Source of the DNA: Eledone cirrhosa
Taxonomy: Eukaryota
Reading direction: 5' to 3'
Assembly (NCBI GenBank): GCA_964016885.1
Contig: OZ024741.1
Coordinates: forward strand, 20,584,001 to 20,648,000
DNA length: 64,000 nt
Shown piece by piece: positions 1 to 29,853 of the stretch. The notes beneath the pieces are model-generated. The model had not been told where the DNA came from, ran no database searches, and saw nothing but the letters and a program-made list of their open reading frames with translations. A program made the translations under genes and the position numbers. Position 1 is the first letter of the stretch; each line of letters opens with the position of its first letter.

Positions 1-3000
1 ATATATGGTGTAATGTAAATGTTATGTGAGGTAAAGCCTTTACTGTGAAAATACAATACTATATATAGAGTAATGTAAATGTTATGTGAGGTAAAGCCTT
101 TACTGTGAAAATACAATAGTATATATAGAGTAATGTAAATGTTATGTGAGGTAAAGCCTTTACTGTGAAAATACAATAGTAAATATAGAGTAATGTAAAT
201 GTTATGTGAGGTAAAGCCTTTACTGTGAAAATACAATAGTAAATATAGAGTAATGTAAATTTTATATGAGGTAAAGCCTTTACTGTGAAAATATAATAGT
301 AAATATATAGTAATGTAAATGTTATGTGAGGTAAAGCCTTTACTGTGAAAATACAATACTATATATAGAGTAATATAAATGTTATGTGAGGTAAAGCCTT
401 TACTGTGAAAATACAATAGTATATATAGAGTAATGTAAATGTTATGTGAGGTAAAGCCTTTACTGTGAAAATACAATAGTATATATAGAGTAATGTAAAT
501 GTTATGTGAGGTAAAGCCTTTACTGTGAAAATATAATAGTAAATATAGAGTAATGTAAATGTTATGTGAGGTAAAGCCTTTACTGTGAACATACAATAGT
601 ATATATAGAGTAATGTAAATGCTATGTGAGGTAAAGCCTTTACTGTGAAAATACAATAGTATATATAGAGTAATGTAAATGTTATGTGAGGTAAAGCCTT
701 TACTGTGAAAATACAATAGTATATATAGAGTAATGTAAATGTTATGTGAGGTAAAGCCTTTACTGTGAAAATATAATAGTAAATATAGAGTAATGTAAAT
801 GTTATGTGAGGTAAAGCCTTTACTGTGAAAATACAATACTATATATAGAGTAATGTAAATGTTATGTGAGGTAAAGCCTTTACTGTGAAAATACAATAGT
901 ATATATAGAGTAATGTAAATGTTATGTGAGGTAAAGCCTTTACTTTGAAAATACAATACTATATATAGAGTAATGTAAATGTTATGTGAGGTAAAGCCTT
1001 TACTGTGAAAATACAATAGTATATATAGAGTAATGTAAATGTTATGTGAGGTAAAGCCTTTACTGTGAAAATATAATAGTAAATATAGAGTAATGTAAAT
1101 GTTATGTGAGGTAAAGCCTTTACTGTGAACATACAATAGTATATATACAGTAATGTAAATGCTATGTGAGGTAAAGCCTTTACTGTGAAAATACAATAGT
1201 ATATATAGAGTAATGTAAATGTTATGTGACGTAAAGCCTTTACTGTGAAAATACAATACTATATATAGAGTAATGTAAATGTTATGTGAGGTAAAGCCTT
1301 TACTGTGAAAATACAATACTATATATAGAGTAATGTAAATGTTATGTGAGGTAAAGCCTTTACTGTAAAAATACAATAGTATATATAGAGTAATGTAAAT
1401 GTTATGTGAGGTAAAGCCTTAACTGTGAAAATACAATAGTAAATATAGAGTAATGTAAATGTTATGTGAGGTAAAGCCTTTACTGTGAAAATACAATAGT
1501 ATATATAGAGTAATGTAAATGTTATGTGAGGTAAAGCCTTTACTGTGAAAATATAATAGTAAATATAGAGTAATGTAAATGTTATGTGAGGTAAAGCCTT
1601 TACTGTGAAAATACAATACTATATATAGAGTAATGTAAATGTTATGTGAGGTAAAGCCTTTACTGTGAAAATACAATAGTAAATATAGAGTAATGTAAAT
1701 GTTATGTGAGGTAAAGCCTTTACTGTGAAAATACAATAGTATATATAGAGTAATGTAAATGTTATGTGAGGTAAAGCCTTTACTGTGAAAATACAATAGT
1801 ATATATAGAGTAATGTAAATGTTATGTGAAGTAAAGCCTTTACTGTGAAAATACAATACTATATATAGAGTAATGTAAATCTTATGTGAGGTAAAGCCTT
1901 TACTGTGAAAATACAATAGTATATATAGAGTAATGTAAATGTTATGTGACGTAAAGCCTTTACTGTGAAAATACAATACTATATATAGAGTAATGTAAAT
2001 GTTATGTGAGGTAAAGCCTTTACTGTGAAAATACAATACTATATATAGAGTAATGTAAATGTTATGTGAGGTAAAGCCTTTACTGTAAAAATACAATAGT
2101 ATATATAGAGTAATGTAAATGTTATGTGAGGTAAAGCCTTAACTGTGAAAATACAATAGTAAATATAGAGTAATGTAAATGTTATGTGAGGTAAAGCCTT
2201 TACTGTGAAAATACAATAGTATATATAGAGTAATGTAAATGTTATGTGAGGTAAAGCCTTTACTGTGAAAATATAATAGTAAATATAGAGTAATGTAAAT
2301 GTTATGTGAGGTAAAGCCTTTACTGTGAAAATACAATACTATATATAGAGTAATGTAAATGTTATGTGAGGTAAAGCCTTTACTGTGAAAATACAATAGT
2401 AAATATAGAGTAATGTAAATGTTATGTGAGGTAAAGCCTTTACTGTGAAAATACAATAGTATATATAGAGTAATGTAAATGTTATGTGAGGTAAAGCCTT
2501 TACTGTGAAAATACAATACTATATATAGAGTAATGTAAATGTTATGTGAGGTAAAGCCTTTACTGTGAAAATACAATAGTATATATAGAGTAATGTAAAT
2601 GTTATGTGAGGTAAAGCCTTTACTGTGAAAATACAATACTATATATGGTGTAATGTAAATGTTACGTGAGGTAAAGCCTTTACTGTGAAAATATAATAGT
2701 AAATATAGAGTAATGTAAATGTTATGTGAGGTAAAGCCTTTACTGTGAACATACAATAGTATATATAGAGTAATGTAAATGCTATGTGAGGTAAAGCCTT
2801 TACTGTGAAAATACAATAGTATATATGTGACGTAAAGCCTTTACTGTGAAAATACAATAGTATATATAGAGTAATGTAAATGTTTTGTGAGATAAAGCCT
2901 TTACTGTGAAAATACAATAGTATATATAGAGTAATGTAAATGTTATGTGAGGTAAAGCCTTTACTGTGAAAATATAATAGTAAATATAGAGTAATGTAAA

Positions 3001-6000
3001 TGTTATGTGAGGTAAAGCCTTTACTGTGAACATACAATAGTATATATAGAGTAATGTAAATGCTATGTGAGGTAAAGCCTTTACTGTGAAAATACAATAG
3101 TATATATGTGACGTAAAGCCTTTACTGTGAAAATACAATAGTATATATAGAGTAATGTAAATGTTTTGTGAGATAAAGCCTTTACTGTGAAAATACAATA
3201 GTATATATAGAGTAATGTAAATGTTATGTGAGGTAAAGCCTTTACTGTGAAAATATAATAGTAAATATAGAGTAATGTAAATGTTATGTGAGGTAAAGCC
3301 TTTACTGTGAAAATACAATACTATATATAGAGTAATGTAAATGTTATGTGAGGTAAAGCCTTTACTGTGAAAATACAATAGTATATATAGAGTAATGTAA
3401 ATGTTATGTGAGGTAAAGCCTTTACTTTGAAAATACAATACTATATATAGAGTAATGTAAATGTTATGTGAGGTAAAGCCTTTACTGTGAAAATACAATA
3501 GTATATATAGAGTAATGTAAATGTTATATGAGGTAAAGCCTTTACTGTGAAAATACAATAGTATATATAGAGTAATGTAAATGTTATGTGAGGTAAAGCC
3601 TTTACTGTGAAAATATAATAGTAAATATAGAGTAATGTAAATGTTATGTGAGGTAAAGCCTTTACTGTGAACATACAATAGTATATATAGAGTAATGTAA
3701 ATGCTATGTGAGGTAAAGCCTTTACTGTGAAAATACAATAGTATATATGTGACGTAAAGCCTTTACTGTGAAAATACAATAGTATATATAGAGTAATGTA
3801 AATGTTTTGTGAGATAAAGCCTTTACTGTGAAAATACAATGGTATATATAGAGTAATGTAAATGTTATGTGAGGTAAAGCCTTTACTGTGAAAATATAAT
3901 AGTAAATATAGAGTAATGTAAATGTTATGTGAGGTAAAGCCTTTACTGTGAAAATACAATACTATATATAGAGTAATGTAAATGTTAAGTGAGATAAAGC
4001 CTTTACTGTGAAAATACAATACTATATATAGAGTAATGTAAATGCTATGTGAGGTAAAGCCTTTACTGTGAAAATACAATACTATATATAGAGTAATGTA
4101 AATGTTATGTGAGATAAAGCCTTTACTGTGAAAATACAATAGTATATATAGAGTAATGTAAATGTTATGTGAGGTAAAGCCTTTACTTTGAAAATACAAT
4201 ACTATATATAGAGTAATGTAAATGTTATGTGAGGTAAAGCCTTTACTGTGAAAATACAATAGTATATATAGAGTAATGTAAATGTTATGTGAGGTAAAGC
4301 CTTTACTGTGAAAATATAATAGTAAATATAGAGTAATGTAAATGTTATGTGAGGTAAAGCCTTTACTGTGAACATACAATAGTATATATAGAGTAATGTA
4401 AATGCTATGTGAGGTAAAGCCTTTACTGTGAAAATACAATAGTATATATAGAGTAATGTAAATGTTATGTGAGGTAAAGCCTTTACTGTGAAAATACAAT
4501 AGTATATATAGAGTAATGTAAATGTTATGTGAGGTAAAGCCTTTACTGTGAAAATATAATAGTAAATATAGAGTAATGTAAATGTTATGTGAGGTAAAGC
4601 CTTTACTGTGAAAATACAATACTATATATAGAGTAATGTAAATGTTATGTGAGGTAAAGCCTTTACTGTGAAAATACAATAGTATATATAGAGTAATGTA
4701 AATGTTATGTGAGGTAAAGCCTTTACTTTGAAAATACAATACTATATATAGAGTAATGTAAATGTTATGTGAGGTAAAGCCTTTACTGTGAAAATACAAT
4801 AGTATATATAGAGTAATGTAAATGTTATGTGAGGTAAAGCCTTTACTGTGAAAATATAATAGTAAATATAGAGTAATGTAAATGTTATGTGAGGTAAAGC
4901 CTTTACTGTGAACATACAATAGTATATATACAGTAATGTAAATGCTATGTGAGGTAAAGCCTTTACTGTGAAAATACAATAGTATATATAGAGTAATGTA
5001 AATGTTATGTGACGTAAAGCCTTTACTGTGAAAATACAATACTATATATAGAGTAATGTAAATGTTATGTGAGGTAAAGCCTTTACTGTGAAAATACAAT
5101 ACTATATATAGAGTAATGTAAATGTTATGTGAGGTAAAGCCTTTACTGTAAAAATACAATAGTATATATAGAGTAATGTAAATGTTATGTGAGGTAAAGC
5201 CTTAACTGTGAAAATACAATAGTAAATATAGAGTAATGTAAATGTTATGTGAGGTAAAGCCTTTACTGTGAAAATACAATAGTATATATAGAGTAATGTA
5301 AATGTTATGTGAGGTAAAGCCTTTACTGTGAAAATATAATAGTAAATATAGAGTAATGTAAATGTTATGTGAGGTAAAGCCTTTACTGTGAAAATACAAT
5401 ACTATATATAGAGTAATGTAAATGTTATGTGAGGTAAAGCCTTTACTGTGAAAATACAATAGTAAATATAGAGTAATGTAAATGTTATGTGAGGTAAAGC
5501 CTTTACTGTGAAAATACAATAGTATATATAGAGTAATGTAAATGTTATGTGAGGTAAAGCCTTTACTGTGAAAATACAATAGTATATATAGAGTAATGTA
5601 AATGTTATGTGAAGTAAAGCCTTTACTGTGAAAATACAATACTATATATAGAGTAATGTAAATCTTATGTGAGGTAAAGCCTTTACTGTGAAAATACAAT
5701 AGTATATATAGAGTAATGTAAATGTTATGTGACGTAAAGCCTTTACTGTGAAAATACAATACTATATATAGAGTAATGTAAATGTTATGTGAGGTAAAGC
5801 CTTTACTGTGAAAATACAATACTATATATAGAGTAATGTAAATGTTATGTGAGGTAAAGCCTTTACTGTAAAAATACAATAGTATATATAGAGTAATGTA
5901 AATGTTATGTGAGGTAAAGCCTTAACTGTGAAAATACAATAGTAAATATAGAGTAATGTAAATGTTATGTGAGGTAAAGCCTTTACTGTGAAAATACAAT

Positions 6001-8767
6001 AGTATATATAGAGTAATGTAAATGTTATGTGAGGTAAAGCCTTTACTGTGAAAATATAATAGTAAATATAGAGTAATGTAAATGTTATGTGAGGTAAAGC
6101 CTTTACTGTGAAAATACAATACTATATATAGAGTAATGTAAATGTTATGTGAGGTAAAGCCTTCACTGTGAAAATACAATAGTAAATATAGAGTAATGTA
6201 AATGTTATGTGAGGTAAAGCCTTTACTGTGAAAATACAATAGTATATATAGAGTAATGTAAATGTTATGTGAGGTAAAGCCTTTACTGTGAAAATACAAT
6301 ACTATATATAGAGTAATGTAAATGTTATGTGAGGTAAAGCCTTTACTGTGAAAATACAATAGTATATATAGAGTAATGTAAATGTTATGTGAGGTAAAGC
6401 CTTTACTGTGAAAATACAATACTATATATGGTGTAATGTAAATGTTACGTGAGGTAAAGCCTTTACTGTGAAAATATAATAGTAAATATAGAGTAATGTA
6501 AATGTTATGTGAGGTAAAGCCTTTACTGTGAACATACAATAGTATATATAGAGTAATGTAAATGCTATGTGAGGTAAAGCCTTTACTGTGAAAATACAAT
6601 AGTATATATGTGACGTAAAGCCTTTACTGTGAAAATACAATAGTATATATAGAGTAATGTAAATGTTTTGTGAGATAAAGCCTTTACTGTGAAAATACAA
6701 TAGTATATATAGAGTAATGTAAATGTTATGTGAGGTAAAGCCTTTACTGTGAAAATATAATAGTAAATATAGAGTAATGTAAATGTTATGTGAGGTAAAG
6801 CCTTTACTGTGAACATACAATAGTATATATAGAGTAATGTAAATGCTATGTGAGGTAAAGCCTTTACTGTGAAAATACAATAGTATATATGTGACGTAAA
6901 GCCTTTACTGTGAAAATACAATAGTATATATAGAGTAATGTAAATGTTTTGTGAGATAAAGCCTTTACTGTGAAAATACAATAGTATATATAGAGTAATG
7001 TAAATGTTATGTGAGGTAAAGCCTTTACTGTGAAAATATAATAGTAAATATAGAGTAATGTAAATGTTATGTGAGGTAAAGCCTTTACTGTGAAAATACA
7101 ATACTATATATAGAGTAATGTAAATGTTATGTGAGGTAAAGCCTTTACTGTGAAAATACAATAGTATATATAGAGTAATGTAAATGTTATGTGAGGTAAA
7201 GCCTTTACTTTGAAAATACAATACTATATATAGAGTAATGTAAATGTTATGTGAGGTAAAGCCTTTACTGTGAAAATACAATAGTATATATAGAGTAATG
7301 TAAATGTTATATGAGGTAAAGCCTTTACTGTGAAAATACAATAGTATATATAGAGTAATGTAAATGTTATGTGAGGTAAAGCCTTTACTGTGAAAATATA
7401 ATAGTAAATATAGAGTAATGTAAATGTTATGTGAGGTAAAGCCTTTACTGTGAACATACAATAGTATATATAGAGTAATGTAAATGCTATGTGAGGTAAA
7501 GCCTTTACTGTGAAAATACAATAGTATATATAGAGTAATGTAAATGTTTTGTGAGATAAAGCCTTTACTGTGAAAATACAATGGTATATATAGAGTAATG
7601 TAAATGTTATGTGAGGTAAAGCCTTTACTGTGAAAATATAATAGTAAATATAGAGTAATGTAAATGTTATGTGAGGTAAAGCCTTTACTGTGAAAATACA
7701 ATACTATATATAGAGTAATGTAAATGTTATGTGAGGTAAAGCCTTTACTGTGAACATACAATAGTATATATACAGTAATGTAAATGCTATGTGAGGTAAA
7801 GCCTTTACTGTGAAAATACAATAGTATATATAGAGTAATGTAAATGTTATGTGACGTAAAGCCTTTACTGTGAAAATACAATACTATATATAGAGTAATG
7901 TAAATGTTATGTGAGGTAAAGCCTTTACTGTGAAAATACAATACTATATATAGAGTAATGTAAATGTTATGTGAGGTAAAGCCTTTACTGTGAAAATACA
8001 ATAGTATATATAGAGTAATGTAAATGTTATGTGAGGTAAAGCCTTAACTGTGAAAATACAATAGTAAATATAGAGTAATGTAAATGTTATGTGAGGTAAA
8101 GCCTTTACTGTGAAGATACAATAGTATATATAGAGTAATGTAAATGTTATGTGAGGTAAAGCCTTTACTGTGAAAATACAATACTATATATAGAGTAATG
8201 TAAATGTTATGTGAGGTAAAGCCTTTACTGTGAAAATACAATAGTATATATAGAGTAATGTAAATGTTATGTGAGGTAAAGCCTTTACTGTGAAAATACA
8301 ATACTATATATGGTGTAATGTAAATGTTATGTGAGGTAAAGCCTTTACTGTGAAAATACAATACTATATATAGAGTAATGTAAATGTTATGTGAGGTAAA
8401 GCCTTTACTGTGAAAATACAATACTATATATAGAGTAATGTAAATGTTATGTGAGGTAAAGCCTTTACTGTGAAAATACAATAGTATATATAGAGTAATG
8501 TAAATGTTATATGAGGTAAAGCCTTTACTGTGAAAATACAATAGTATATATAGAGTAATGTAAATGTTATGTGAGGTAAAGCCTTTACTGTGAAAATATA
8601 ATAGTAAATATAGAGTAATGTAAATGTTATGTGAGGTAAAGCCTTTACTGTGAACATACAATAGTATATATAGAGTAATGTAAATGCTATGTGAGGTAAA
8701 GCCTTTACTGTGAAAATACAATAGTATATATGTGACGTAAAGCCTTTACTGTGAAAATACAATAGTA
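1..8767. repeat. 60-bp satellite, block 1 (unit ATATATAGAGTAATGTAAATGTTATGTGAGGTAAAGCCTTTACTGTGAAAATACAATAGT; occasional 41-bp deletion units)
   Basis: Direct 60-bp periodicity with few SNP variants; continues past the window start. Confidence 0.99.
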
Positions 8768-11270
8768 TCATCATCATCATCATCACCGTTTTACGTCCGT
8801 TCTTCCACGCTAGCATGGGTTAGACGGGTTGTCCTGTTGTGGGCAGTGTCTGGTCGGCTGACCATGCCTTGCTCATACAGGAACTGATCTGGCTTGATTT
8901 CTACAGCTGGATGCCCTTCCTAACACCAACCTCATTTACAGTGAGTGCTGGGTGCTTTTTCGTGGCGCCTACACGTCCACTTTACAGTGTGGGCTGGGTG
9001 CTTTTTTGCCGTGGCACCTCCACGACCACCTTGCGGTGGGGGGGGGGGGGCATATTGTTTATATGCTTCAGCATGTACCCATGGGAGGTCGGGTACCCTG
9101 TATTACTGCGTGACGCCAGAAGTCACGGTCGTGTGTCATTGACTTTGAGAGGTGTAGTTGGGTAAGGTCGGCTTTTATCACCTCATCCCAAGTCATCTTG
9201 GGTCTCCCCACTCCGCGGTTTCCATCAACTTCTAGTGCTCTGCACCTTTTTATGCAGCTGTCATCCTTCATACGCATCACATGTCCATACCAGCGTAACC
9301 GCCTCTCCTGCACGCAGCATTTGATTCCTCTTATGCTCAGTCTCTCTCTCAATTCATTTATGCTTTGTCGTTCACGTATATTACTGTTACACATCCATCG
9401 GAGCATGCAGGCTTCGTTTCTCTCTAATCTACGTAAGTCTTCCACCTTCAGCGCCCAGGTCTCACTACCATGCAACATCGCTGTTCGGATACACGCATCA
9501 TACAGTCTGCCTTTCATTCTGAGGGAGAAGCCTTTTGCAGCTAGCAGTGGTAGTAGTTCCCTAAACTTCTTCCATCCCGTTCTTACCCTAGTTATTGTAC
9601 TTTCTGAGCACCCACCTCCGTTGCTAATTCGGTCACCTAGGTAGCAGAAGCTGTCTACTGTTTCTACAGGGCCCTCCCAGAGATTGGTGGTACTTGTTTC
9701 CTGTGGCTGTTTGCTTGCTGTTTCAGCACAGCTGCTGCATGTGAATCCTACATTCTTAATTAAGCTTCCTGAGATCCCGCTACATCTCTTGTGTACCCAT
9801 TGTTTGCATTTGGGGCAGAGAATGGAGTTCCTACCTACACCTTTCCTACATACTGAGCAAGGCCATTTCCCTGAGGGGATCTGGGTTCTGTTTTCTCGTC
9901 TACTTATAAGGACCTTAGTCTTTGTCATGTTGACTTTGAGGCCCTTTCTCTCTAGTCCCTGCTTCCAGGTTTGGAATTTATTCTCTAGTTCTACCATAGA
10001 TTCAGCTATGAGTGCGAGGTCATCAGCATACAGGAGTTCCCATGGGCATCCGGTCTTAAACTCCTCCGTTATTGCCTGCAGGACTATGATGAACAGGAGA
10101 GGGCTAAGAACAGAGCCCTGGTGGACCCCAACCTGTACGCTAAATTCCTCGCTATACTCATTGCCAATCCTAACTTTGCTGACTGCTCCCCTATACATGG
10201 CTTGTACCGCTTTCACAAGCCATTCATCTACTCCTAGTTTTCTAAGAGCCCACCAGATTACTGCACGTGGAACTCTGTCAAAGGCTTTCTCAAGGTCGAC
10301 AAATGCCAAGTAGAGTGGCTTACTTTTAGCTAGGTACTTTTCCTGTAATTGCCTCACAAGGAAGAGCGCATCAGTGGTGCCTTTCCCTGGAACAAACCCA
10401 AATTGCATCTCGTCTATATTCACCCGGTCCCTAATCAGCTGTGCTATAACTCTTTCTGTTACTTTCATGACCTGGTCCATCAACTTTATACCTCTATAGT
10501 TTCCTCTATCTAGTGCATCGCCTTTACCTTTGTAGCAGTTGACAATGATGCTACTGCACCAATCTTTTGGTATGGCCCCCTCTAGTATTACCTGGTTAAC
10601 GATACGTGTGGTTATAGTGTGACCTACAGACCCAGATGCCTTCAGCATCTCGGCAGCTATACCCGATGGACCGGTTGCCTTCCCTATCTTCATATCTCTG
10701 ATTGCCTTACTTACTACGCTGCCGCTGACTTGTACTGCTGGTCCCTCTATAGGGTCTACGTGGGGTAGGGTCTCTTCTTCCCATGCATTCTCCTCATTTA
10801 GTAATCTATCATAATGACTCTTCCATGCATCTTTCTTCTCAGCACTTGTGAGGGCAAGCTCACCTTTATCATTCCGGATACACTTCTCTCCAATGACATC
10901 ACAACTATCTCTGACACACTGCCTCGCAATCTTGAATACCTCCTGTTTCTGGTCCTCACGTTGTAAAACATGCTTGAATTTTCTATCCTCTGCTTCCCTC
11001 CTAGCTAAGTATACTTGTCGCCTAGCTTCCCTCTTGGTCTCTATGTAATGTACCCTGCTCCCCCCGTTCTTCCATTCTTTCCATGCCTGTCTCTTGGCCT
11101 TGACTGCTTCATCTACCTTATTGTTCCACCACCAAGTCACTCTCCTCCTGCTTGAGGTCTTACTCCAGCCACAAACCTCATCCGTCGCCTCTAGTAAGTT
11201 ATTTTTTAGGAACTCCCAGTTCTCTTCTACGTTAAATGTCTCTATCTGTTCTTCTTTACTGTCGTAGGTT
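8768..11270 (-). mobile_element. 5'-truncated RTE-clade LINE inserted in the satellite, with (ATG)n 3' tail
   Basis: RT ORF, about 300-bp 3' UTR and (CAT)n on + at about 8768-8785; satellite resumes in register at 11271. Confidence 0.95.
9068..11269 (-). CDS. RTE reverse transcriptase, N-truncated (no endonuclease), with internal PHD finger
   Basis: Motifs NYRGIKL, QFGF, FVDLEKAFD, GVHQGSVLSP, YADD, FCYLG and RLRWYGHV. The frame stays open upstream of the called start (11140) to the truncation point (TYDSKEEQIETF...). Confidence 0.93.
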   Translation of the reverse strand, partial: TYDSKEEQIETFNVEENWEFLKNNLLEATDEVCGWSKTSSRRRVTWWWNNKVDEAVKAKRQAWKEWKNGGSRVHYIETKREARRQVYLARREAEDRKFKHVLQREDQKQEVFKIARQCVRDSCDVIGEKCIRNDKGELALTSAEKKDAWKSHYDRLLNEENAWEEETLPHVDPIEGPAVQVSGSVVSKAIRDMKIGKATGPSGIAAEMLKASGSVGHTITTRIVNQVILEGAIPKDWCSSIIVNCYKGKGDALDRGNYRGIKLMDQVMKVTERVIAQLIRDRVNIDEMQFGFVPGKGTTDALFLVRQLQEKYLAKSKPLYLAFVDLEKAFDRVPRAVIWWALRKLGVDEWLVKAVQAMYRGAVSKVRIGNEYSEEFSVQVGVHQGSVLSPLLFIIVLQAITEEFKTGCPWELLYADDLALIAESMVELENKFQTWKQGLERKGLKVNMTKTKVLISRRENRTQIPSGKWPCSVCRKGVGRNSILCPKCKQWVHKRCSGISGSLIKNVGFTCSSCAETASKQPQETSTTNLWEGPVETVDSFCYLGDRISNGGGCSESTITRVRTGWKKFRELLPLLAAKGFSLRMKGRLYDACIRTAMLHGSETWALKVEDLRRLERNEACMLRWMCNSNIRERQSINELRERLSIRGIKCCVQERRLRWYGHVMRMKDDSCIKRCRALEVDGNRGVGRPKMTWDEVIKADLTQLHLSKSMTHDRDFWRHAVIQGTRPPMGTC

Positions 11271-17562: not shown

Positions 17563-17799
17563 GGTTTCTTTATTTGCCACTAGGGCACAAAAGGTAGGGA
17601 CAGATACAAGGGGGGAAGTTTACATATAATTAACGAGTACAAAAATATAACAATGAAATAACAACAACAAACGAAGTCCTCAATAGGGAGGGGGCATTAA
17701 CATGGGTCGCACACACCCCGGAAAAAATGTGTAACCCTTCTCCTCAGGAGCACAAAGAGTAGGTGCTTCCCTCGTCTCCGCTTTTTCCTCTTCTTTCAC

Positions 17800-20700
17800 C
17801 TACAGGCTGATATAGAGAGAAGACCCATTCACTCTGGCCATTCTCCCTACTTTCACCCACCTTTCATAAAACTTGCTGGGGTAGAGCACCTCTCTCTCCA
17901 TTCTGATCCTTCTTTTAAAATGGTATTTGAAAAAGGGGACCAGTTGTTGGCCGGAGAGAAAGGTGTCTGACCTCAGCCCTTTCAGCCTCGTCCACCATAC
18001 AACTTCTTTAGCCATGGCTACCACACAGAGAAAAACCGCCTCTCCTTCGTTTTTGAAAGGGGGAGGCGGTTTGATCGTGACAATGGACTCGGTGGTCAAC
18101 CGGATTGGTCCCACCCTCGACAGTAGTCGTTCCACATAGCCCCACAGGTCAGCAATGCCTGGGCAGTGTACGAATGCGTGCGCAACGGTTTCGTCATCAT
18201 GCACGCATCTCGGACAGATCTTATTCAAAGGATCTCTACCCAGGCTCCCATGTCTGTGGAGCTTGTCTCGAACGGGTAGAGCCCCTCGGTAGCACTGCCA
18301 AGCCAGGGACTTTTGGAAGTTGTCCATCGGTCCAGGGCCAAACGTCCTACCGAACAGACTGGCCAGTTCATCTTCCTCCATGCCTAGAGCTTCTCCGAGA
18401 GCATCGTCGCACCTGCTGCGTACCAACCCTCTATAGAATGTCGAGGTGGAGTCTCCACTGATTGCCGGGTCCGCTTTCCAGAGGGCCGTGAGCGCCTGGG
18501 CACATTCAATGTGCCAGTCGCCCACTTTTCTCGGTCTTTGCTTGACCCAGGATTGCAGCTCGGTGAGCGAGACGAGTCTGGGAAAGGCTCGCCTCACAAA
18601 CGGGGCCCACACCGGTTGACCGGTGAGGAATACCTGGAGGTGCCGTAGCCTTAATGCGTGTTTACGCATCTGTAGCCACGGCATCCCCAGCCCTCCTTTC
18701 GAAGGGTGTTGACAGCAGATGGATCTCCTCACCAAAGGGGTCCGCTTGTTCCAAAGAAATTGGAACAGCGCGCACTCCATTTTGGCGAGTCTTTTCACTG
18801 GGCAAGGCACGACGGTCAAGCGGTAGTAGATGACGGATGCTATATAAGTATTCGCCACCTCCGCTCGACCTTTCAGGGATAGTTTGCACTGGGCCCACTT
18901 CTGGGTGAGTGCAAACACCCTGGCCGTTACCTCGTTCCAGTTTTTCTCCACCTGGAGGTCTGGTCCGAACCAGACCCCAAGCAGCTTCACCGGGCCCTCC
19001 GTCCAGCGTCCGACGACGTCGTTGGAGGGCATCGGTTTGCCTCTCCATGTTCCGAGTTGCAAACCGACGGACTTGTCCCGGTTCAGCTTGGCTCCTGTAA
19101 ACCTTTCATATTCCTCCAGTAAGGTGCCGATCTCACCGATTTGCGAGGTTTTCGACACCATTACTGTCACGTCATCGGCGTAGGCCGACGCCGCTTTCTG
19201 CAATCCCGGTTCCAAAGGGATGCCCTGCAACCGCTCCAACTTCCGCAGTAGTGGCTCAAGAGCCAGCACATACAGTAGGGAGGAGAGAGGGCATCCCTGT
19301 CGGATGGATCGCATGATTTGGAACGGCTCCGAGAGGTGGCCGTTCACCTTGACCCTTGAGCAGACGTTGCTGCTGTGCATCGCAGCAATCCAACCCCTGA
19401 AAACGGGTCCGAAGCCTGCCGCCGCGAGCACCGCATCCAGGTAACGATGGTCAACCCTATCGAAAGCTTTAGATTGATCCAAGTTGATCAGGGCCCCACC
19501 AAAGCCGGGTTCATTCCCTACCCTCTCTATGATGTATCGCATAAGGTGGAGATTGTCGTGAATGGACCTGGACGGGATTGCGCATGTCTGCGCTTCTCCC
19601 ACCAGGTTTCCAACGACAAGCGCCAACCTCTTCGCTAACACCTTGGCCAAAATCTTTAACTCTGTATTTAGCAGAGTTATGGGCCTGAAGTTACTTATGT
19701 CATCCCCCTTGTTCTCATCCTTCCTCACCAGCGTAACTACGCCCTTGGTCACAGAACTGGGAATTCTCCCGTTCTGCTGCCAGTTGCAGTAGACCGCTTC
19801 GAGGATATCGGAGAACAAGTCCGGCATCGCTACATATAGCTCGTATGGTAGACCATCGAGACCCGGGGATTTGCGTTTGCCGCATTGGCTCAGCGCCGCC
19901 CCTATCTCAGCAGCTGAAATCGTCCTTTCGCAGGACTTCGCCTCCGCGTCCGAGAGGCGCGGCAGACCGTCGAGGTATGGATTGAAATCCATAGTCTCAC
20001 CCGGCGCGCCGCCCCTCTCGAACAGTCGTGCAAAGTGCCGCTGAAAGGCCGCACACATCTGCCCAGGTTCAAGGATCACACGCCCATCCTGGTTCTTCAA
20101 AGACCGAATCGTGGACTTGTTCCCACTTTTTGCCTCTGTCACTCGGGCCCAGCTTACAGCTTTGGCTCCCTCATTACCCAGAGCACGTATTTTACTCCTG
20201 ACAACGCAGCCTTCATGCTTCACCTCAAAGAACTGGTCTAAGGCCATTCTTGATGCCAGCACGCCGGCTACATTGCCACTCCTAATCGCCTCTTCTACTC
20301 TATCTACTAATTCCCTTTCCGTCTTGTTCCTATCCCTTGCTAATTCCTGACTAAAACCTATCGATTCTATTCTAATTGCTCTCTTAAGAGAGCTCCACCA
20401 CCTGTTGTTGACAATTGCCCCTGTCAAACTCTGCTTAACTAACGTGCTAATCCGTTTACTGTAAGCTTTGCTTCTCGGTAAGGACAAGTTCAGCTTCCAG
20501 TAACCGGGTCCCTGTCTATGGGTTCTATCAAGGTTGGCTATGCAGGTCACTAACTTGTGATCCGAATAGTCAACCATGAACATTTTTGGACAGCTAAATG
20601 TGTCCCTATCGTTCTCTCTAACTAGGACCCTATCTAGGTACGACCTAGATGTTCCACTGCGATTGGTCCACGTCCATAGTGGTACAGTCGGAAAATCTAG

Positions 20701-21237
20701 TCGATATCTATCGGCCAGGTCAAATCGGCCGATTAACCTTTTGAGGCTTTTACACCCCCCTCTATTGGCACATGCCCCTACATAGTCCCAACGTGCATCC
20801 AGGATACCATTCCAGTCCCCCACTAAAAGCAAGGAGCGGGACGTTCCCAGAAAAGTTTCCAGACGTTGGAAGTATTCCGGCCGCGCTGCCCAAAAAGGGG
20901 CGTACACAGCTATTAGTCTAAGGGCTCCACTTTCACTACTGCCGACGTCTAAAACCACCAGTCGACCCTCCGGGTCCAGGTGCACCTTCTGTATGGCGAG
21001 GCCCAGGTGTTTTCGCAGCAGAACGACAACTCCACCCCCACCCCCCGGTTGACAGAGAGATGCGAAGATCTCAAAGTCGTCGAAGAGGGGCGCCAGTTGG
21101 TGCTCGCTGCTGATCCTGGACTCGCAAATAGCCATTACATCCATTCTATGTGACCTGAGATCGTTTAAAAGTTTGCCTTGTTTCCAAGACAGTCCCAGGC
21201 CACGTACATTCAGACACCCAACTCTTATATCAGCCAT
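17800..21237 (-). CDS. Tx1/L1-type ORF2: APE endonuclease, reverse transcriptase and C-terminal zinc motif (1145 aa)
   Basis: APE motifs CLNVRG, GDWN, YLDR and SDH; GPGYWKLN; KSPGLDG, NFRPITLLN, LDQSKAFD, IRQGCPLS, YADD; GGLG; CPRC..ETVAHAFVHC. No stops. Confidence 0.96.
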   Translation of the reverse strand: MADIRVGCLNVRGLGLSWKQGKLLNDLRSHRMDVMAICESRISSEHQLAPLFDDFEIFASLCQPGGGGGVVVLLRKHLGLAIQKVHLDPEGRLVVLDVGSSESGALRLIAVYAPFWAARPEYFQRLETFLGTSRSLLLVGDWNGILDARWDYVGACANRGGCKSLKRLIGRFDLADRYRLDFPTVPLWTWTNRSGTSRSYLDRVLVRENDRDTFSCPKMFMVDYSDHKLVTCIANLDRTHRQGPGYWKLNLSLPRSKAYSKRISTLVKQSLTGAIVNNRWWSSLKRAIRIESIGFSQELARDRNKTERELVDRVEEAIRSGNVAGVLASRMALDQFFEVKHEGCVVRSKIRALGNEGAKAVSWARVTEAKSGNKSTIRSLKNQDGRVILEPGQMCAAFQRHFARLFERGGAPGETMDFNPYLDGLPRLSDAEAKSCERTISAAEIGAALSQCGKRKSPGLDGLPYELYVAMPDLFSDILEAVYCNWQQNGRIPSSVTKGVVTLVRKDENKGDDISNFRPITLLNTELKILAKVLAKRLALVVGNLVGEAQTCAIPSRSIHDNLHLMRYIIERVGNEPGFGGALINLDQSKAFDRVDHRYLDAVLAAAGFGPVFRGWIAAMHSSNVCSRVKVNGHLSEPFQIMRSIRQGCPLSSLLYVLALEPLLRKLERLQGIPLEPGLQKAASAYADDVTVMVSKTSQIGEIGTLLEEYERFTGAKLNRDKSVGLQLGTWRGKPMPSNDVVGRWTEGPVKLLGVWFGPDLQVEKNWNEVTARVFALTQKWAQCKLSLKGRAEVANTYIASVIYYRLTVVPCPVKRLAKMECALFQFLWNKRTPLVRRSICCQHPSKGGLGMPWLQMRKHALRLRHLQVFLTGQPVWAPFVRRAFPRLVSLTELQSWVKQRPRKVGDWHIECAQALTALWKADPAISGDSTSTFYRGLVRSRCDDALGEALGMEEDELASLFGRTFGPGPMDNFQKSLAWQCYRGALPVRDKLHRHGSLGRDPLNKICPRCVHDDETVAHAFVHCPGIADLWGYVERLLSRVGPIRLTTESIVTIKPPPPFKNEGEAVFLCVVAMAKEVVWWTRLKGLRSDTFLSGQQLVPFFKYHFKRRIRMEREVLYPSKFYERWVKVGRMARVNGSSLYISL

Positions 21238-21258
21238 GTTGGTTAAAAGAGGAAGGAC

Positions 21259-22998
21259 CTACCTGTTCGGCTCCTGAGGAGCAGGTTGCACAATATCCAT
21301 GGGCGTATTGGAGGGGTTGTTTGGTGGGGTGTTGTTCTGTGGTGGAGTGGGGGTGTTTGGTGAGGTGTGGGTGGGGAAACGTTTCAAGAGGACGCGGTTA
21401 TAGGGTCGAGTACATGTTTTCCCCACGTCCTCAGGAAAGTTCTCTCTTAGTTTTGCATAGGTGTCCATTGGGAGTCTTATCATTTTTAAATGCGGTTTGT
21501 TGGCCGCGCTTGCAAAGAATTGCCCTTCAGTTTCCACCAAAGGGTCTTTGTGTATTGTTTTTACTAGTTCTTTGTTATTTGTGTTAATGTATGTATACTG
21601 TTTTATTTGTGTTGTGTTTGTTTGTTGTTCTTGTGTGTGCTTACGTTTTGTTGTATGTGTTATGTTTTGGGGTGGGGCGGATTTTGTTTGTTCTGTTTGT
21701 TTTGTTTTTGTTGGTGGTTGTGTGTTTGTTTCGTTTATGTTCGAGTGGTGCTTTCTTTTTTTCCTTTTTACAGGTTGGAAGGGTTCCCCCTCTTCGTCAC
21801 TAGGTGCCGTTTCCGCTGGGTCCTCGTCCGTGCTGTCGGGTAGTGGTGTATTTTGGGGTTTTGTTGTATTTGTGTGTGTTTTGGGAGTTGTTTTGGGTGG
21901 GGCCGTGTCTTGTGTTATTTTTCCCTGTTGTTTTTGTTGTTGTTGTGGTGGTGGTGGTGGAGGTGGTGGTGGTGGTGGTGGTGGTGGTGGTGTGTGGGGT
22001 GTAGGCAAAAGAGCCTTTTTTTTTGTCAATTGAGGACAAGCAGCCCTTAGATGACCCCTGCTTGAACAGTAGTAACATATGGGCCTCCTACCCTCGGCTG
22101 AAATATATATAAATGTTTCTCCATCGAGGGACACCCTCTGTGGTATTCTAGCGATTCGTTCTGGTCTCATTTGGACCAGAACCTCCACGCTCAAACCGCC
22201 GAAAACGTCTGTGGTGACTTCTCCTACTGAGAGGATTCCGTCCTCGTCTTCTAAAAATCCTGTTAGTACCCAGGAAATGCATGCATTTGGCCGGATTCCG
22301 GAGACCCTTATCTTCTGCGTTCTTTTCCCTAAATATGTGGGGAAAAATGTATATATCTTGGAAACAATTGGTGCCACAGAGTATTTCCTGGCCGTCAATT
22401 GATCCTTCATTAGGACCGTTATATTCCCATAGAGTGGCCCTTTTTGTATGAACGATATATCACTCCACACATTTTTTAGGACCAGCTCAATCTCTTTTTG
22501 GGATAATTGAGTTGGTTTCCTTGTTATGTTGAAAATTGTTCTGAAAGATATCGTTCTTAGCGTCGTGTCTCTTTTGATTTCTTGTGGGGAGGTGATTGTG
22601 AAGTCTCCTCCTTCTTTGAAAGTTACATACTGTTTCGCTTCCTTCATCTTTTCTCTCAGAGTTGTAATGTCCAGTTGCTTGCAGGTTTGTGTTTTCCGGA
22701 CCGCCTGTGCAAAGGAGGTACCAGTAGTGGGTTCACTTTGTTTGGTGTTATCGTTATTTTTTCCTTGGTTGGTGTTGTGACTATTGCTGTTATTGTCGTT
22801 GATGTTTTTGTCTGCGTTTATGTGACTTTCTGGGTTTTCACCCATTTCTACAAATTTTTCTTTTAATTCCGTGTTCCATGTTTCTTTTGCAGAAGTGAGG
22901 AGGGAAGACTTAGAGCCTTGTGCTTCTAGCTTCTCTGTATCACCTTTCTTAGGGGGCGTGGCTTTCACGTTAGGATGAGATGTGAAAATTCCGTCCAT
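21259..22998 (-). CDS. Tx1-type ORF1 (gag-like) with CCHC zinc knuckle
   Basis: CYYCSSRGHLRAAC (C-x2-C-x4-H-x4-C), poly-Pro/Gln tract and basic KRKKRK. First ATG is at 22998 (the track starts at TTG 23091). Confidence 0.88.
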   Translation of the reverse strand: MDGIFTSHPNVKATPPKKGDTEKLEAQGSKSSLLTSAKETWNTELKEKFVEMGENPESHINADKNINDNNSNSHNTNQGKNNDNTKQSEPTTGTSFAQAVRKTQTCKQLDITTLREKMKEAKQYVTFKEGGDFTITSPQEIKRDTTLRTISFRTIFNITRKPTQLSQKEIELVLKNVWSDISFIQKGPLYGNITVLMKDQLTARKYSVAPIVSKIYTFFPTYLGKRTQKIRVSGIRPNACISWVLTGFLEDEDGILSVGEVTTDVFGGLSVEVLVQMRPERIARIPQRVSLDGETFIYISAEGRRPICYYCSSRGHLRAACPQLTKKKALLPTPHTPPPPPPPPPPPPPPPQQQQKQQGKITQDTAPPKTTPKTHTNTTKPQNTPLPDSTDEDPAETAPSDEEGEPFQPVKRKKRKHHSNINETNTQPPTKTKQTEQTKSAPPQNITHTTKRKHTQEQQTNTTQIKQYTYINTNNKELVKTIHKDPLVETEGQFFASAANKPHLKMIRLPMDTYAKLRENFPEDVGKTCTRPYNRVLLKRFPTHTSPNTPTPPQNNTPPNNPSNTPMDIVQPAPQEPNR

Positions 22999-23210
22999 TT
23001 CTATTAGTTTGCCGTAATAAATTTTTAACTGGAAAATTCGCCCCAAAAAGGGGCGAAAATAAATAAACTCGAAGTTTGACGACCAAGGCAAGGGGTTAAC
23101 GTATATTACAGTATAAAAAAATTAATCAAAACTCACTTTTTGAGTAAGTAAATCCGACTCGGTAGCCGAGCTTGTTCACACACGTCAACACACGTCTCTC
23201 GTATACGAGA

Positions 23211-26200
23211 TGTTATGTGAGATATTATGTGAGGTAAAGCCTTTACTGTGAAAATACAATAGTAAATATAGAGTAATGTAAATGTTATGTGAGGTAAAGC
23301 CTTTACTGTGAAAATATAATAGTAAATATAGAGTAATGTAAATGTTATGTGAGGTAAAGCCTTTACTGTGAAAATACAATAGTATATATAGAGTAATGTA
23401 AATGTTATGTGAGGTAAAGCCTTTACTGTGAAAATATAATAGTAAATATAGAGTAATGTAAATGTTATGTGAGGTAAAGCCTTTACTGTGAACATACAAT
23501 AGTATATATACAGTAATGTAAATGCTATGTGAGGTAAAGCCTTTACTGTGAAAATACAATAGTATATATAGAGTAATGTAAATGTTATATGAGGTAAAGC
23601 CTTTACTGTGAAAATACAATAGTATATATAGAGTAATGTAAATGTTATATGAGGTAAAGCCTTTACTGTGAAAATACAATAGTATATATAGAGTAATGTA
23701 AATGTTATGTGAGGTAAAGCCTTTACTGTGAAAATATAATAGTAAATATAGAGTAATGTAAATGTTATGTGAGGTAAAGCCTTTACTGTGAACATACAAT
23801 AGTATATATAGAGTAATGTAAATGCTATGTGAGGTAAAGCCTTTACTGTGAAAATACAATAGTATATATAGAGTAATGTAAATGTTATGTGAGGTAAAGC
23901 CTTTACTGTGAAAATACAATACTATATATAGAGTAATGTAAATGTTATGTGAGGTAAAGCCTTTACTGTGAAAATACAATAGTATATATAGAGTAATGTA
24001 AATGTTATATGAGGTAAAGCCTTTACTGTGAAAATACAATAGTATATATAGAGTAATGTAAATGTTATGTGTGGTAAAGCCTTTACTGTGAAAATACAAT
24101 ACTATATATAGAGTAATGTAAATGTTATGTGAGGTAAAGCCTTTACTGTGAAAATACAATAGTATATATAGAGTAATGTAAATGTTATATGAGGTAAAGC
24201 CTTTACTGTGAAAATACAATAGTATATATAGAGTAATGTAAATGTTATGTGAGGTAAAGCCTTTACTGTGAAAATACAATAGTATATATAGAGTAATGTA
24301 AATGTTATATGAGGTAAAGCCTTTACTGTGAAAATACAATAGTATATATAGAGTAATGTAAATGTTATGTGAGGTAAAGCCTTTACTGTGAACATACAAT
24401 AGTATATATAGAGTATTGTAAATGCTATGTGAGGTAAAGCCTTTACTGTGAAAATACAATAGTATATATGTGACGTAAAGCCTTTACTGTGAAAATACAA
24501 TAGTATATATAGAGTAATGTAAATGTTATGTGAGGTAAAGCCTTTACTGTGAAAATACAATACTATATATAGAGTAATGTAAATGTTATGTGAGGTAAAG
24601 CCTTTACTGTGAAAATACAATACTATATATAGAGTAATGTAAATGTTATGTGAGGTAAAGCCTTTACTGTGAAAATACAATAGTATATATAGAGTAATGT
24701 AAATGCTATGTGAGGTAAAGCCTTTACTTTGAAAATACAATACTATATATAGAGTAATGTAAATGTTATGTGAGGTAAAGCCTTTACTGTGAAAATACAA
24801 TACTATATATAGAGTAATGTAAATGTTATGTGAGGTAAAGCCTTTACTGTGAAAATACAATAGTATATATAGAGTAATGTAAATGTTATATGAGGTAAAG
24901 CCTTTACTGTGAAAATACAATAGTATATATAGAGTAATGTAAATGTTATGTGAGGTAAAGCCTTTACTGTGAAAATATAATAGTAAATATAGAGTAATGT
25001 AAATGTTATGTGAGGTAAAGCCTTTACTGTGAACATACAATAGTATATATAGAGTAATGTAAATGCTATGTGAGGTAAAGCCTTTACTGTGAAAATACAA
25101 TAGTATATATGGTGTAATGTAAATGTTATGTGAGGTAAAGCCTTTACTGTGAAAATACAATACTATATATGGTGTAATGTAAATGTTATGTGAGGTAAAG
25201 CCTTTACTGTGAAAATACAATACTATATATAGAGTAATGTAAATGTTATATGAGGTAAAGCCTTTACTGTGAAAATACAATAGTATATATAGAGTAATGT
25301 AAATGTTATGTGAGGTAAAGCCTTTACTGTGAAAATACAATACTATATATAGAGTAATGTAAATGCTATGTGAGGTAAAGCCTTTACTGTGAAAATACAA
25401 TAGTATATATGTGACGTAAAGCCTTTACTGTGAAAATACAATAGTATATATAGAGTAATGTAAATGTTATGTGAGGTAAAGCCTTTACTGTGAAAATACA
25501 ATAGTATATATAGAGTAATGTAAATGTTATGTGAGGTAAAGCCTTTACTGTGAAAATACAATAGTATATATAGAGTAATGTAAATGTTATGTGAGGTAAA
25601 GCCTTTACTGTGAAAATACAATACTATATATAGAGTAATGTAAATGTTATGTGAGGTAAAGCCTTTACTGTGAAAATACAATAGTATATATAGAGTAATG
25701 TAAATGTTATGTGAGGTAAAGCCTTTACTGTGAAAATACACTAGTATTTATAGAGTAATGTAAATGTTATGTGAGGTAAAGCCTTTACTGTGAAAATACA
25801 CTAGTATATATAGAGTAATGTAAATGTTATGTGAGGTAAAGCCTTTACTGTGAAAATACACTAGTATATATAGAGTAATGTAAATGTTATGTGAGGTAAA
25901 GCCTTTACTGTTAAAATACACTAGTATATATAGAGTAATGTAAATGTTATGTGAGGTAAAGCCTTTACTGTGAAAATACACTAGTATATATAGAGTAATG
26001 TAAATGTTATGTGAGGTAAAGCCTTTACTGTGAAAATACAATAGTATATATAGAGTAATGTAAATGTTATGTGAGGTAAAGCCTTTACTGTGAAAATACA
26101 ATAGTATATATAGAGTAATGTAAATGTTATGTGAGGTAAAGCCTTTACTGTGAAAATACAATAGTAAATATAGAGTAATGTAAATGTTATGTGAGGTAAA

Positions 26201-27675
26201 GCCTTTACTGTGAAAATACAATAGTAAATATAGAGTAATGTAAATGTTATGTGAGGTAAAGCCTTTACTGTGAAAATACAATAGTATATATGGTGTAATG
26301 TAAATGTTATGTGAGGTAAAGCCTTTACTGTGAAAATACAATACTATATATGGTGTAATGTAAATGTTATGTGAGGTAAAGCCTTTACTGTGAAAATACA
26401 ATACTATATATAGAGTAATGTAAATGTTATATGAGGTAAAGCCTTTACTGTGAAAATACAATAGTATATATAGAGTAATGTAAATGTTATGTGAGGTAAA
26501 GCCTTTACTGTGAAAATACAATACTATATATAGAGTAATGTAAATGCTATGTGAGGTAAAGCCTTTACTGTGAAAATACAATAGTATATATGTGACGTAA
26601 AGCCTTTACTGTGAAAATACAATAGTATATATAGAGTAATGTAAATGTTATGTGAGGTAAAGCCTTTACTGTGAAAATACAATAGTATATATAGAGTAAT
26701 GTAAATGTTATGTGAGGTAAAGCCTTTACTGTGAAAATACAATAGTATATATAGAGTAATGTAAATGTTATGTGAGGTAAAGCCTTTACTGTGAAAATAC
26801 AATACTATATATAGAGTAATGTAAATGTTATGTGAGGTAAAGCCTTTACTGTGAAAATACAATAGTATATATAGAGTAATGTAAATGTTATGTGAGGTAA
26901 AGCCTTTACTGTGAAAATACACTAGTATTTATAGAGTAATGTAAATGTTATGTGAGGTAAAGCCTTTACTGTGAAAATACACTAGTATATATAGAGTAAT
27001 GTAAATGTTATGTGAGGTAAAGCCTTTACTGTGAAAATACACTAGTATATATAGAGTAATGTAAATGTTATGTGAGGTAAAGCCTTTACTGTTAAAATAC
27101 ACTAGTATATATAGAGTAATGTAAATGTTATGTGAGGTAAAGCCTTTACTGTGAAAATACACTAGTATATATAGAGTAATGTAAATGTTATGTGAGGTAA
27201 AGCCTTTACTGTGAAAATACAATAGTATATATAGAGTAATGTAAATGTTATGTGAGGTAAAGCCTTTACTGTGAAAATACAATAGTATATATAGAGTAAT
27301 GTAAATGTTATGTGAGGTAAAGCCTTTACTGTGAAAATACAATAGTAAATATAGAGTAATGTAAATGTTATGTGAGGTAAAGCCTTTACTGTGAAAATAC
27401 AATACTATATATAGAGTAATGTAAATGTTATGTGAGGTAAAGCCTTTACTGTGAAAATACACTAGTATATATAGAGTAATGTAAATGTTATGTGAGGTAA
27501 AGCCTTTACTGTGAAAATACAATAGTATATATAGAGTAATGTAAATGTTATGTGAGGTGAAGCCTTTACTGTGAAAATACAATACTATATATAGAGTAAT
27601 GTAAATGTTATGTGAGGTAAAGCCTTTACTGTGAAAATACAATACTATATATGGAGTAATGTAAATGCTAAAGGG
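23211..27675. repeat. 60-bp satellite, block 3, ending in the MITE terminal inverted repeat ...GTAAATGCTAAAGGG
   Basis: Same unit; the last unit runs into TAAATGCTAAAGGG at 27662-27675. Confidence 0.98.
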
Positions 27676-28120: not shown

Positions 28121-28203
28121 TTTTGCCCATCACTGTCATTGACAGCATTTGGCTGTTTTTGCAATGAGTCTTCTAATTTTTATATGTATATTCTAAAGTA
28201 TTT

Positions 28204-29817: not shown

Positions 29818-29853
29818 AAGCTAATCTATGATTCCTATTTTTTCTTATTTTAG

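Follow-up and report, generated by a model that had tools for sequence, protein, structure and literature searches.

A satellite array of Eledone cirrhosa apparently derived from the end of a piggyBac-type MITE

Satellites born from DNA transposons

Satellites born from MITEs are already known, and their starting point is mostly blurred. The best reading of the array described here, which lies in a 64,000-nucleotide stretch of Eledone cirrhosa DNA (the window, taken as a whole), is that it is a MITE-derived satellite of the same kind as Xstir, miDNA4 and Tetris. In the Xstir/Xmix T2-MITE of Xenopus an internal segment of a TTAA-targeting MITE has likewise been tandemly amplified, the MITE, the array and composite forms are reported side by side, and an origin from a hybrid element made of two copies has been proposed, which agrees with the mixed alleles seen here (PMC6004289, PMC12628747, PMC9659126). 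Xmix differs in having AGGRR ends and a presumed Kolobok affiliation, whereas the MITE here has C-rich ends of piggyBac type; furthermore, compared with Xstir, the present unit overlaps the inner TIR and ends 8 nt from the terminus, and its sister lengths share that breakpoint. For miDNA4 of Xenopus tropicalis the likeness is that the monomer occurs singly or in multiple copies inside a MITE and that intact termini are lost in long arrays, although its parent belongs to Tc1/mariner and capture of a pre-existing repeat together with flanking microhomology has been proposed (PMC9659126, PMC12628747), whereas at the majority junction here, which sits in a 6-bp stretch of partial match, 0-1 letters are shared. 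Tetris TIR-220 of Drosophila virilis is comparable in that the terminal repeats of a non-autonomous DNA transposon have given rise to kilobase arrays of up to 66 copies with disruption of the element, but it is a foldback element with the repeats pre-built into long TIRs (PMC4079207), whereas here a single occurrence of the segment in the parent stands against at least 329 in the array.

A further likeness concerns one of the LINEs within the array. Tx1L in Tx1D of Xenopus laevis is a Tx1-clade LINE inserted in a non-autonomous piggyBac element, and co-transcribed target sequence is said there to strengthen targeting, as for R2 and SINEU (PMC4494074); here, by contrast, the landing site is a MITE-derived satellite, and the one insertion seen is of a LINE that is presumably Tx1-like. 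Searches of the open literature, a scope that excludes Repbase and the repeat library made for O. vulgaris (PMC13282606), and judged from listings and the openings of abstracts, gave no account of this MITE family, nor of any cephalopod satellite built from a piggyBac MITE.

The array and its parent MITE family

The array has 329 unit anchors (148, 106 and 75 by block) over 19,525 bp of the window, which bears out the claim of a first-pass annotation that a satellite of more than 19 kb and about 325 units is present. That annotation treated positions 1-27675 as a single satellite; the array is there, but as three blocks with LINEs at 8769-11270 and 17563-23209 between them.

1-8768, + strand: satellite block 1, 148 unit anchors, running off the window edge
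8769-11270, - strand: 5'-truncated LINE with RT and PHD, at unit position p32, with a 1-3 nt duplication
11271-17562, + strand: satellite block 2, 106 anchors, last position unit p41
17563-23209, - strand: apparently full-length LINE with open ORF1 and ORF2; unit p42-48 missing at the insertion site
23210-27675, + strand: satellite block 3, 75 anchors
23210-23233, + strand: junction of the 72-bp type where the LINE has its 5' end, with 12 extra bases identical to the MITE interior
27617-27675, + strand: terminal unit, with the full 14-bp TIR at 27662-27675 and array-type changes at p29 and p37
27676-27679, + strand: expected TTAA target duplication absent, 2 of 4 bases differing

Positions within the unit, p1-p60, are counted from window position 91. 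Nearly all of the 326 unit spacings are 60 bp (312, with 13 of 41 bp and 1 of 58 bp), and pairwise divergence among units is 3.6%. There are 43 unit types arranged in ordered higher-order patterns, with variants specific to blocks (p26 in block 3 only, p1 and p54 in blocks 1-2 only) and with exact duplications of 1,961 nt in block 1 (offset 3,783) and of 1,157 nt in block 3 (offset 1,181). A coding reading of the long open frames spanning the array was dropped, as the 60-bp unit is stop-free and the frames are a by-product of this.

Four dispersed MITE copies of 207-221 bp with 14-bp TIRs are present in the window, and all four have TTAA on both sides.

30768-30992, - strand: MITE copy, 217 bp between TTAAs, with a 14-bp internal duplication and the far TIR lacking 7 nt
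31205-31419, - strand: MITE copy, 207 bp, nearest to the unit, from which it differs at 4 of 54 positions
59162-59376, + strand: MITE copy, 207 bp, with perfect 14-bp TIRs, oriented as the array
59723-59951, - strand: MITE copy, 221 bp, with perfect TIRs and an internal duplication

The earlier statements that the unit matches the subterminal region of four TTAA-flanked MITEs, and that 31217-31259 is a 43-nt perfect reverse complement of it, are both upheld, with the qualification that the far TIR of the 30768 copy is shortened; the 43-nt match is exact, and in a shuffle control (n=100) the longest unit match had a mean of 11.5 and a maximum of 14. The commonest unit shows 4-8 differences from the MITE copies over 54 positions, the last five bases at the array end recur in the copies, and identity between copies is 79-86%.

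These elements are short and non-coding, with TIRs, target duplication and a high copy number, as MITEs should be. Their TIRs start with three C then three T, which fits the six-base motif expected of piggyBac elements, for which a TIR of about 12-19 bp with C as first base is also asked (PMC5381638); the TTAA target duplication of all four copies likewise fits this superfamily. Membership of Kolobok or the T2-MITEs, defined in PMC6004289 by a terminal AG or AGGRR motif, is rejected as the MITE ends start with C. The superfamily would further call for a cognate autonomous element with a DDD transposase and matching ends. Six recently active piggyBac families are described from O. vulgaris (PMC13282606); Pfam gave no piggyBac domain in 7 of the 40 listed long frames of the window. 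As to subterminal repeats, an optional piggyBac feature, the unit has a dyad at p1-13, and in the two copies compared no motif of at least 6 nt recurred consistently between the two ends inward of the TIRs.

The unit is a MITE segment ending 8 nt short of the element terminus, and the last unit, as the first-pass annotation had it, continues into the whole TIR. The monomer is thus homologous to part of a MITE and the array edge is continuous with the element, which is what defines a MITE-derived satellite, and from these comparisons an origin of the array from the MITE end appears well supported; the same matches and terminal TIR bear out the earlier view of the satellite as an amplified piggyBac-type MITE end. 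Two details of that view fared less well. It gave each unit a TIR without its terminal AAGGG plus a dyad, and the dyad at p1-13 is indeed perfect in 294 of 326 units, but 9 contiguous TIR bases are kept in only 32 of 312 (6 are kept in 277 and 5 in 3). It also placed the monomer junction at a TA microhomology, which fits those 32 units only, whereas at the majority junction p51 is joined to p52, 8 nt inside the end, a call that may be biased as the reference copy used for read placement carries a private base at the junction site. Units retaining the additional TIR bases, 22 of which have a second change in common at p20, are more likely derived, because p51-p52 is both the majority junction and the one supported by reads. 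The TA microhomology is accordingly the less likely ancestral state, being found in a minority of units while the other junction is found in reads of three organisms.

Divergence and TIR content favour the MITE as older than the array, which looks younger because its units diverge by 3.6% whereas the MITE copies are 79-86% identical, notwithstanding that low unit divergence could equally reflect homogenisation rather than youth.

At the visible array end an intact piggyBac-type element should have a TIR and an adjoining TTAA; the TIR is present and the TTAA is not, the first one downstream being at 27741. Excision of piggyBac elements requires flanking TTAA, and its absence at the sole visible end argues against the array as an intact mobile element.

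Alleles common to at least two of the local MITE copies are found in the array in three of four cases, in 22, 37 and 54 of 312 units, whereas none of the 13 alleles private to a single copy occurs there (permutation p 0.0016 in a post hoc test, a value that is overstated because p24 and p32 are linked in 36 of 37 units). The allele at p8, shared among MITE copies, is absent from the array, and none of the four copies has the commonest array variant, which is at p29 and occurs in 98 units. The family is itself dimorphic in the reads of run X7, at p32 (6,585 of 13,356) and at p1 (3,984 of 15,714). Together these patterns suggest that the array was seeded from, or converted by, several MITE copies. 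Recurrent mutation is a possible alternative source of the shared alleles.

The MITE family is very abundant, with 34,588 records placed in run X1 (which may be the source sample), 29,173 in X7 (a reduced-representation library), 50,516 in X5 and 248 in X6 (248 contigs of organism C, possibly a mixed sample and given low weight). Flanks past the TTAA are unrelated among records (agreement 0.36-0.38 in X1, X7 and X5), and loose ends of MITE reads begin at 31204-31205, outside the TTAA. A joint going back 60 bp is seen in all four runs (3 contigs in X1, 27 reads with 9 starts in X7, 5 contigs in X5 and 1 contig in X6), and the 60-bp junction is present in reads of three labelled organisms. Sister junctions of 64 and 72 bp have a breakpoint identical to that of the 60-bp type, and unit lengths of 36, 60, 64 and 72 all stop at one TIR-side point. 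In X1 the junction depth of 124, against about 2 on an exon, is far below 329-fold, and depth is not to be taken as a copy number. The reads support the junction itself and not the array length.

LINE insertions and the host gene

The LINE at 8769-11270, which we take to be RTE-like, has a second copy at 50681-51931, with which it shares 94% identity. The LINE at 17563-23209 is presumably Tx1-like. Its ORF1 has 579 aa counted from the first Met and its ORF2 has 1,145 aa with an APE endonuclease, RT and zf-RVT, so that the ORF pair and the two enzyme domains asked of the target-specific Tx1 clade, APE endonuclease and RT, are present; a homologue search with ORF2 gave 89 matches, the best at 70% identity, and the clade is not given by close matches. 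The 72-bp-type junction at the 5' end of this LINE is unique in the array, and its arrangement matches 108 raw X7 reads. It is likely that the LINE brought into the array a remnant of the site where it had inserted before. PMC4494074 takes a family as target-specific when a single type of target holds over 20% of its copies; the window has one copy of this LINE.

The array probably lies inside an intron of the housekeeping gene for ribose-5-phosphate isomerase.

29854-29914, + strand: RpiA-like exon, probably exon 2, with AG/GT flanks; 12 of 12 matches are RpiA, best E 0.013
31147-31202, + strand: RpiA-like exon, in frame with the exon at 29854-29914
57947-58006, + strand: RpiA-like exon with AG/GT flanks, in frame

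The latter two are putative, assigned to RpiA by a motif. The MITE copy at 31205 has its TTAA at intron bases +3 to +6. The host intron is likely RPIA intron 1; exon 1 itself was looked for by short motifs and by eye in 79 frames over 27676-29860 and was not found there.

Proposed history and its alternatives

We propose that the array, of at least 19.5 kb, probably arose by head-to-tail duplication of a subterminal MITE segment and grew by unequal exchange, and that it is probably an immobile by-product in an RPIA intron. Short tandem versions would predate the array, one of them being the seed here; this seed may have mixed units from different MITE lineages, or units may have been converted later by dispersed copies. 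The higher-order repeats and the exact duplications of 1.2-2.0 kb would come from recent unequal exchange or slippage. Both LINEs inserted after the array had formed; the Tx1-like one would be a site-seeking element whose RNA brought along part of its former target, of the 72-bp type. Loss of the flanking TTAA would have left the structure stranded. Birth inside a MITE at the present locus we infer from one array end, itself without target duplication.

The absent TTAA could also be explained if recombination or rearrangement, rather than transposition, had brought in a complete array, for instance from a DNA circle or from an array elsewhere. The break directly after the TIR without target duplication and the 60-bp junction in organisms B and C are consistent with this, but it is unlikely, as a random break would seldom land precisely on the last TIR base and the p29 and p37 changes of the terminal unit are also in inner units, with which it must then have exchanged. 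The strong form of the first-pass reading, in which the array would be a single giant MITE that is complete at both ends, has its target duplications and can still move as a unit, is improbable: a full TIR does close the array and composite MITE-plus-array forms are reported for Xstir (PMC12628747), but the TTAA found in all four dispersed copies is lacking at 27676, and the structure would be longer than 27 kb with two LINEs within it. It is also quite unlikely that the array has been retained because it would restrain the family by acting as a sponge for transposase or as a source of small RNAs. There are some 330 copies of the dyad-bearing segment, transposase binds at subterminal sites, which can be inhibitory in piggyBat (PMC11707139), and transcription within a housekeeping pre-mRNA is likely; however, 280 of 312 units keep at most 6 contiguous TIR bases, the two MITE ends have no consistent motif in common inside the TIRs, and with thousands of dispersed complete ends already in existence 330 partial ends would contribute little.

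An older satellite, one unit of which was captured by the MITE, has been proposed for miDNA4 (PMC12628747), and concerted evolution may give an old satellite a young look. We consider this very unlikely here, as the unit includes inner TIR bases with a mirror counterpart at the opposite MITE end, the four unit lengths share their TIR-side endpoint, and tandem joints are rare (27 among the 29,173 records of the reduced-representation library X7). Least likely of all is that the array length is an artefact of assembly: long exact duplications and a junction depth below 329-fold might suggest as much, but the ordered patterns of 43 unit types, the block-specific variants and the clean junctions of both LINEs argue otherwise.

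Beyond the history proposed above, we tentatively put forward, as a possibility that may well not hold, that the end of this MITE serves repeatedly as a nursery of satellites, with a fixed break 8 nt inside made by transposase or gap repair, for families of 36, 60, 64 and 72 bp, and that arrays trade alleles with dispersed MITEs and serve as landing pads for a site-specific Tx1-like LINE, whose RNA includes its target and which thereby rewrites the 60-bp unit to the 72-bp type. As parent copies, terminal TIR, sister junctions and family alleles can all be read here, models of satellite birth (hybrid seed, conversion, slippage) become directly testable. Beside the LINE, the 72-type scrap offers a mismatch set up by nature, against which one can ask whether LINEs with specific targets carry the upstream target along and copy it. 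If the nursery reading is true, a DNA transposon would be linked with its satellites and with a retrotransposon in a single system that keeps a readable record of each step.

Relation of the array to a dispersed MITE family

The 60-bp satellite at 1-27675 contains 329 unit anchors and totals 19,525 bp; the first-pass annotation gave about 325 units. Two LINEs that it did not mention, both on the minus strand, interrupt the interval and leave blocks of 148, 106 and 75 units. The left window edge cuts the array, which continues beyond. Among 326 unit spacings, 60 bp is found in 312, 41 bp in 13 and 58 bp in one, with 43 types in all. Divergence is 2.1% from the commonest unit type and 3.6% between units, higher-order repeats are visible in the order of unit types, and certain unit variants are restricted to particular blocks. 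Two stretches are duplicated exactly, one of 1,961 nt at offset 3,783 and one of 1,157 nt at offset 1,181. The 13 41-bp units (for example at 2783-2867) fuse p1-36 to p56-60, with unit positions numbered from window 91. They are invariably preceded by a unit whose p52 holds the TIR-type base, and tag a higher-order repeat found in all three blocks.

Features of the window referred to in the text
8769-11270, minus strand: 5'-truncated LINE, RT and PHD domains (Pfam)
17563-23209, minus strand: LINE with open ORF1 (579 aa) and ORF2 (1,145 aa); APE endonuclease, RT, zf-RVT
29854-29914: RpiA-like exon, AG/GT flanks
29976-30535: 45-bp minisatellite, within or near the RpiA-like gene
31147-31202: RpiA-like exon, AG/GT flanks
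32139-32594: 25-bp minisatellite, within or near the RpiA-like gene
34510-44480: another large satellite, with about 192 copies of a 52-bp unit, in the next intron
57947-58006: RpiA-like exon, AG/GT flanks
61129-61437: 61-bp minisatellite, within or near the RpiA-like gene

The four MITE copies in the window (30768, 31205, 59162 and 59723, named by position) are 207-221 bp long, all lie between TTAAs, carry 14-bp TIRs and show pairwise identities of 79-86%. Compared over 54 positions, their ends show 4-8 differences from the commonest unit. The longest exact match, 43 nt where 100 shuffles gave no more than 14, upholds the earlier identification of the unit with the MITE subterminal region. 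Alignment of four of the nine listed sequencing runs to the 31205 copy placed 34,588 contigs of X1 (organism A, which may be the source sample), 29,173 raw reads of X7 (organism A, separate study), 50,516 contigs of X5 (organism B) and 248 contigs of X6 (organism C). These alignments extend through the TTAA, and the flanks beyond are unrelated. In target site, TIR length and the opening six bases of the TIR, the MITE agrees with the account of piggyBac in an excerpt of PMC5381638; Kolobok/T2 membership was rejected, as the termini do not fit the description in an excerpt of PMC6004289. No transposase was found for the MITE, 7 of the 40 long frames listed having given no piggyBac domain in Pfam, so we keep its label at piggyBac-like. 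Among the matches listed, literature searches gave no description of the family; the supplements and repeat library of PMC13282606 may contain it. Copies 30768 and 59723 belong to a subfamily with 12-14 duplicated bp immediately upstream of p1, and many family reads carry different sequence around p4-p18, with loose ends at 31250 and 31264; there are therefore several MITE subfamilies at this end.

Unit junctions and shared alleles

At the right edge the last unit does run into the full TIR, as had been proposed, 27662-27675 being the whole of it. TTAA is absent directly after it, the nearest being at 27741. The array-type changes at p29 and p37 are present in this terminal unit too, which has therefore taken part in exchange with units further in.

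At the usual junction p51, which lies 8 nt inside the element end, meets interior p52 in a 6-bp stretch with four matching bases. Six contiguous TIR bases are kept in 277 of 312 units, nine in 32 and five in three, so the TA-microhomology junction proposed earlier fits just the 32. We read these TIR-base units as derived, from few events, because a p20 change is common to 22 of them and 13 are followed by the 41-bp unit. Every one of the four runs contains the usual junction, as a joint stepping back 60 bases with 0-1 letters shared (3 contigs in X1, 27 reads from 9 starts in X7, 5 contigs in X5, 1 contig in X6). Three other forms stop at its end base: one of 72 bp, with 108 X7 reads; a go-back-36 joint; and a go-back-64 joint that X7 shows in 122 reads from 20 starts and that X1 and X5 also contain. 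Among the rows listed, 3 of 15 joints and 5 of 12 inserted-letter rows end at this base (there are 195 and 292 further rows), and the reference 31205 copy has a private base beside the breakpoint which may draw breakpoints there.

Within p1-51, three of the four alleles common to at least two local MITE copies are found in the array (in 22, 37 and 54 of 312 units), and none of the 13 single-copy alleles is; the permutation p of 0.0016 comes from a post hoc test, against which counts the linkage of p24 and p32 in 36 of 37 units. Among the rows listed, two of these shared-allele sites, p32 and p1, are dimorphic family-wide (6,585 of 13,356 and 3,984 of 15,714 X7 reads respectively). The likeliest explanation is a seed of at least two MITE lineages, or later conversion by dispersed copies. 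Counting against mixed ancestry are the p8 MITE allele, which the array does not share, and p29, the array's most frequent variant with 98 units, which no local MITE carries; recurrent mutation is a possible source of the shared alleles.

Insertions, host gene and neighbouring repeats

The LINE at 8769-11270, presumably RTE-like, entered at p32, where a duplication of 1-3 nt is present, and shares 94% identity with another copy in the window. We take the LINE at 17563-23209 to be Tx1-like; close matches in a homologue search with its ORF2 carried no names. At its insertion site p42-48 are absent, and its 5' flank (23210-23233) holds 12 additional bases identical to MITE interior, a stretch with a single occurrence in the array and one in each of the four MITE copies. 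The resulting 24-nt arrangement is the 72-bp-type junction found in reads, and none of the 326 array spacings is 72 bp. On the simplest reading of this sequence, the LINE would have come from a 72-bp array, its RNA carrying upstream target. Alternatively, it may have picked a solitary pre-existing 72-type unit, or junction repair may have made the 12-bp duplication. Excerpts of PMC4494074 describe Tx1 as inserting in Tx1D, a non-autonomous piggyBac, and targeting that can be strengthened by a co-transcribed target.

The three RpiA-like exons share a single reading frame. All 12 homologue matches of exon 29854-29914 are ribose-5-phosphate isomerases (best E 0.013), and 31147-31202 and 57947-58006, found by motif, are probably RpiA as well. 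No upstream RpiA exon was seen in 27676-29853, and the array therefore likely lies within the first intron of this putative host gene. The insertion TTAA of the 31205 MITE forms intron bases +3 to +6 (window 31203-31208), and because this target was duplicated the splice donor of the RpiA-like exon is unaltered. On the gene's sense strand, array units (27608-27675) are complementary to the inverted MITE ends 30768, 31205 and 59723, with duplexes predicted at -74 to -86 kcal/mol, where shuffles give about -17. Two such ends follow closely on the exons of 61 and 56 nt, which are in frame and add up to 117 nt. The modelled pairing could favour editing, exon skipping or circles.

The 52-bp satellite has a dispersed 81-nt homologue at 55739-55819 and abuts what resembles a hAT-type element at 44474-46828, its apparent transposase broken across three frames, which gave no Pfam match. 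No parents of the 45-, 25- and 61-bp minisatellites were found within the window. A 218-aa frame at 55934-56590 resembles the end of another retroelement ORF and had no Pfam match.

Origin and standing of the array

We observe the sequence match, the junctions, the shared alleles, the insertions and the missing TTAA; the order of events, the repair route and the neutrality of the array are what we infer. A MITE end would have been duplicated head-to-tail close to the terminus, through slippage or gap repair, giving a short array, already mixed, at the present site, which unequal exchange would then have expanded to more than 19 kb before the two LINEs inserted; loss of the TTAA at some point would have stranded the structure. 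The roles suggested earlier for the array, as a transposase sponge or small-RNA source, are hypothetical. PiggyBat can be bound and inhibited at subterminal sites (excerpt of PMC11707139), but the dispersed family dwarfs the array's 330 partial ends.

The array is a genuine MITE-derived satellite, unusually legible and of a known kind, the same as Xstir from Xmix (PMC9659126, PMC12628747, PMC6004289), miDNA4 (PMC9659126, PMC12628747) and Tetris TIR-220 (PMC4079207), as excerpts of those papers describe them. Follow-up is merited by the shared breakpoint, the mixture of alleles and the 72-type fragment beside the LINE.
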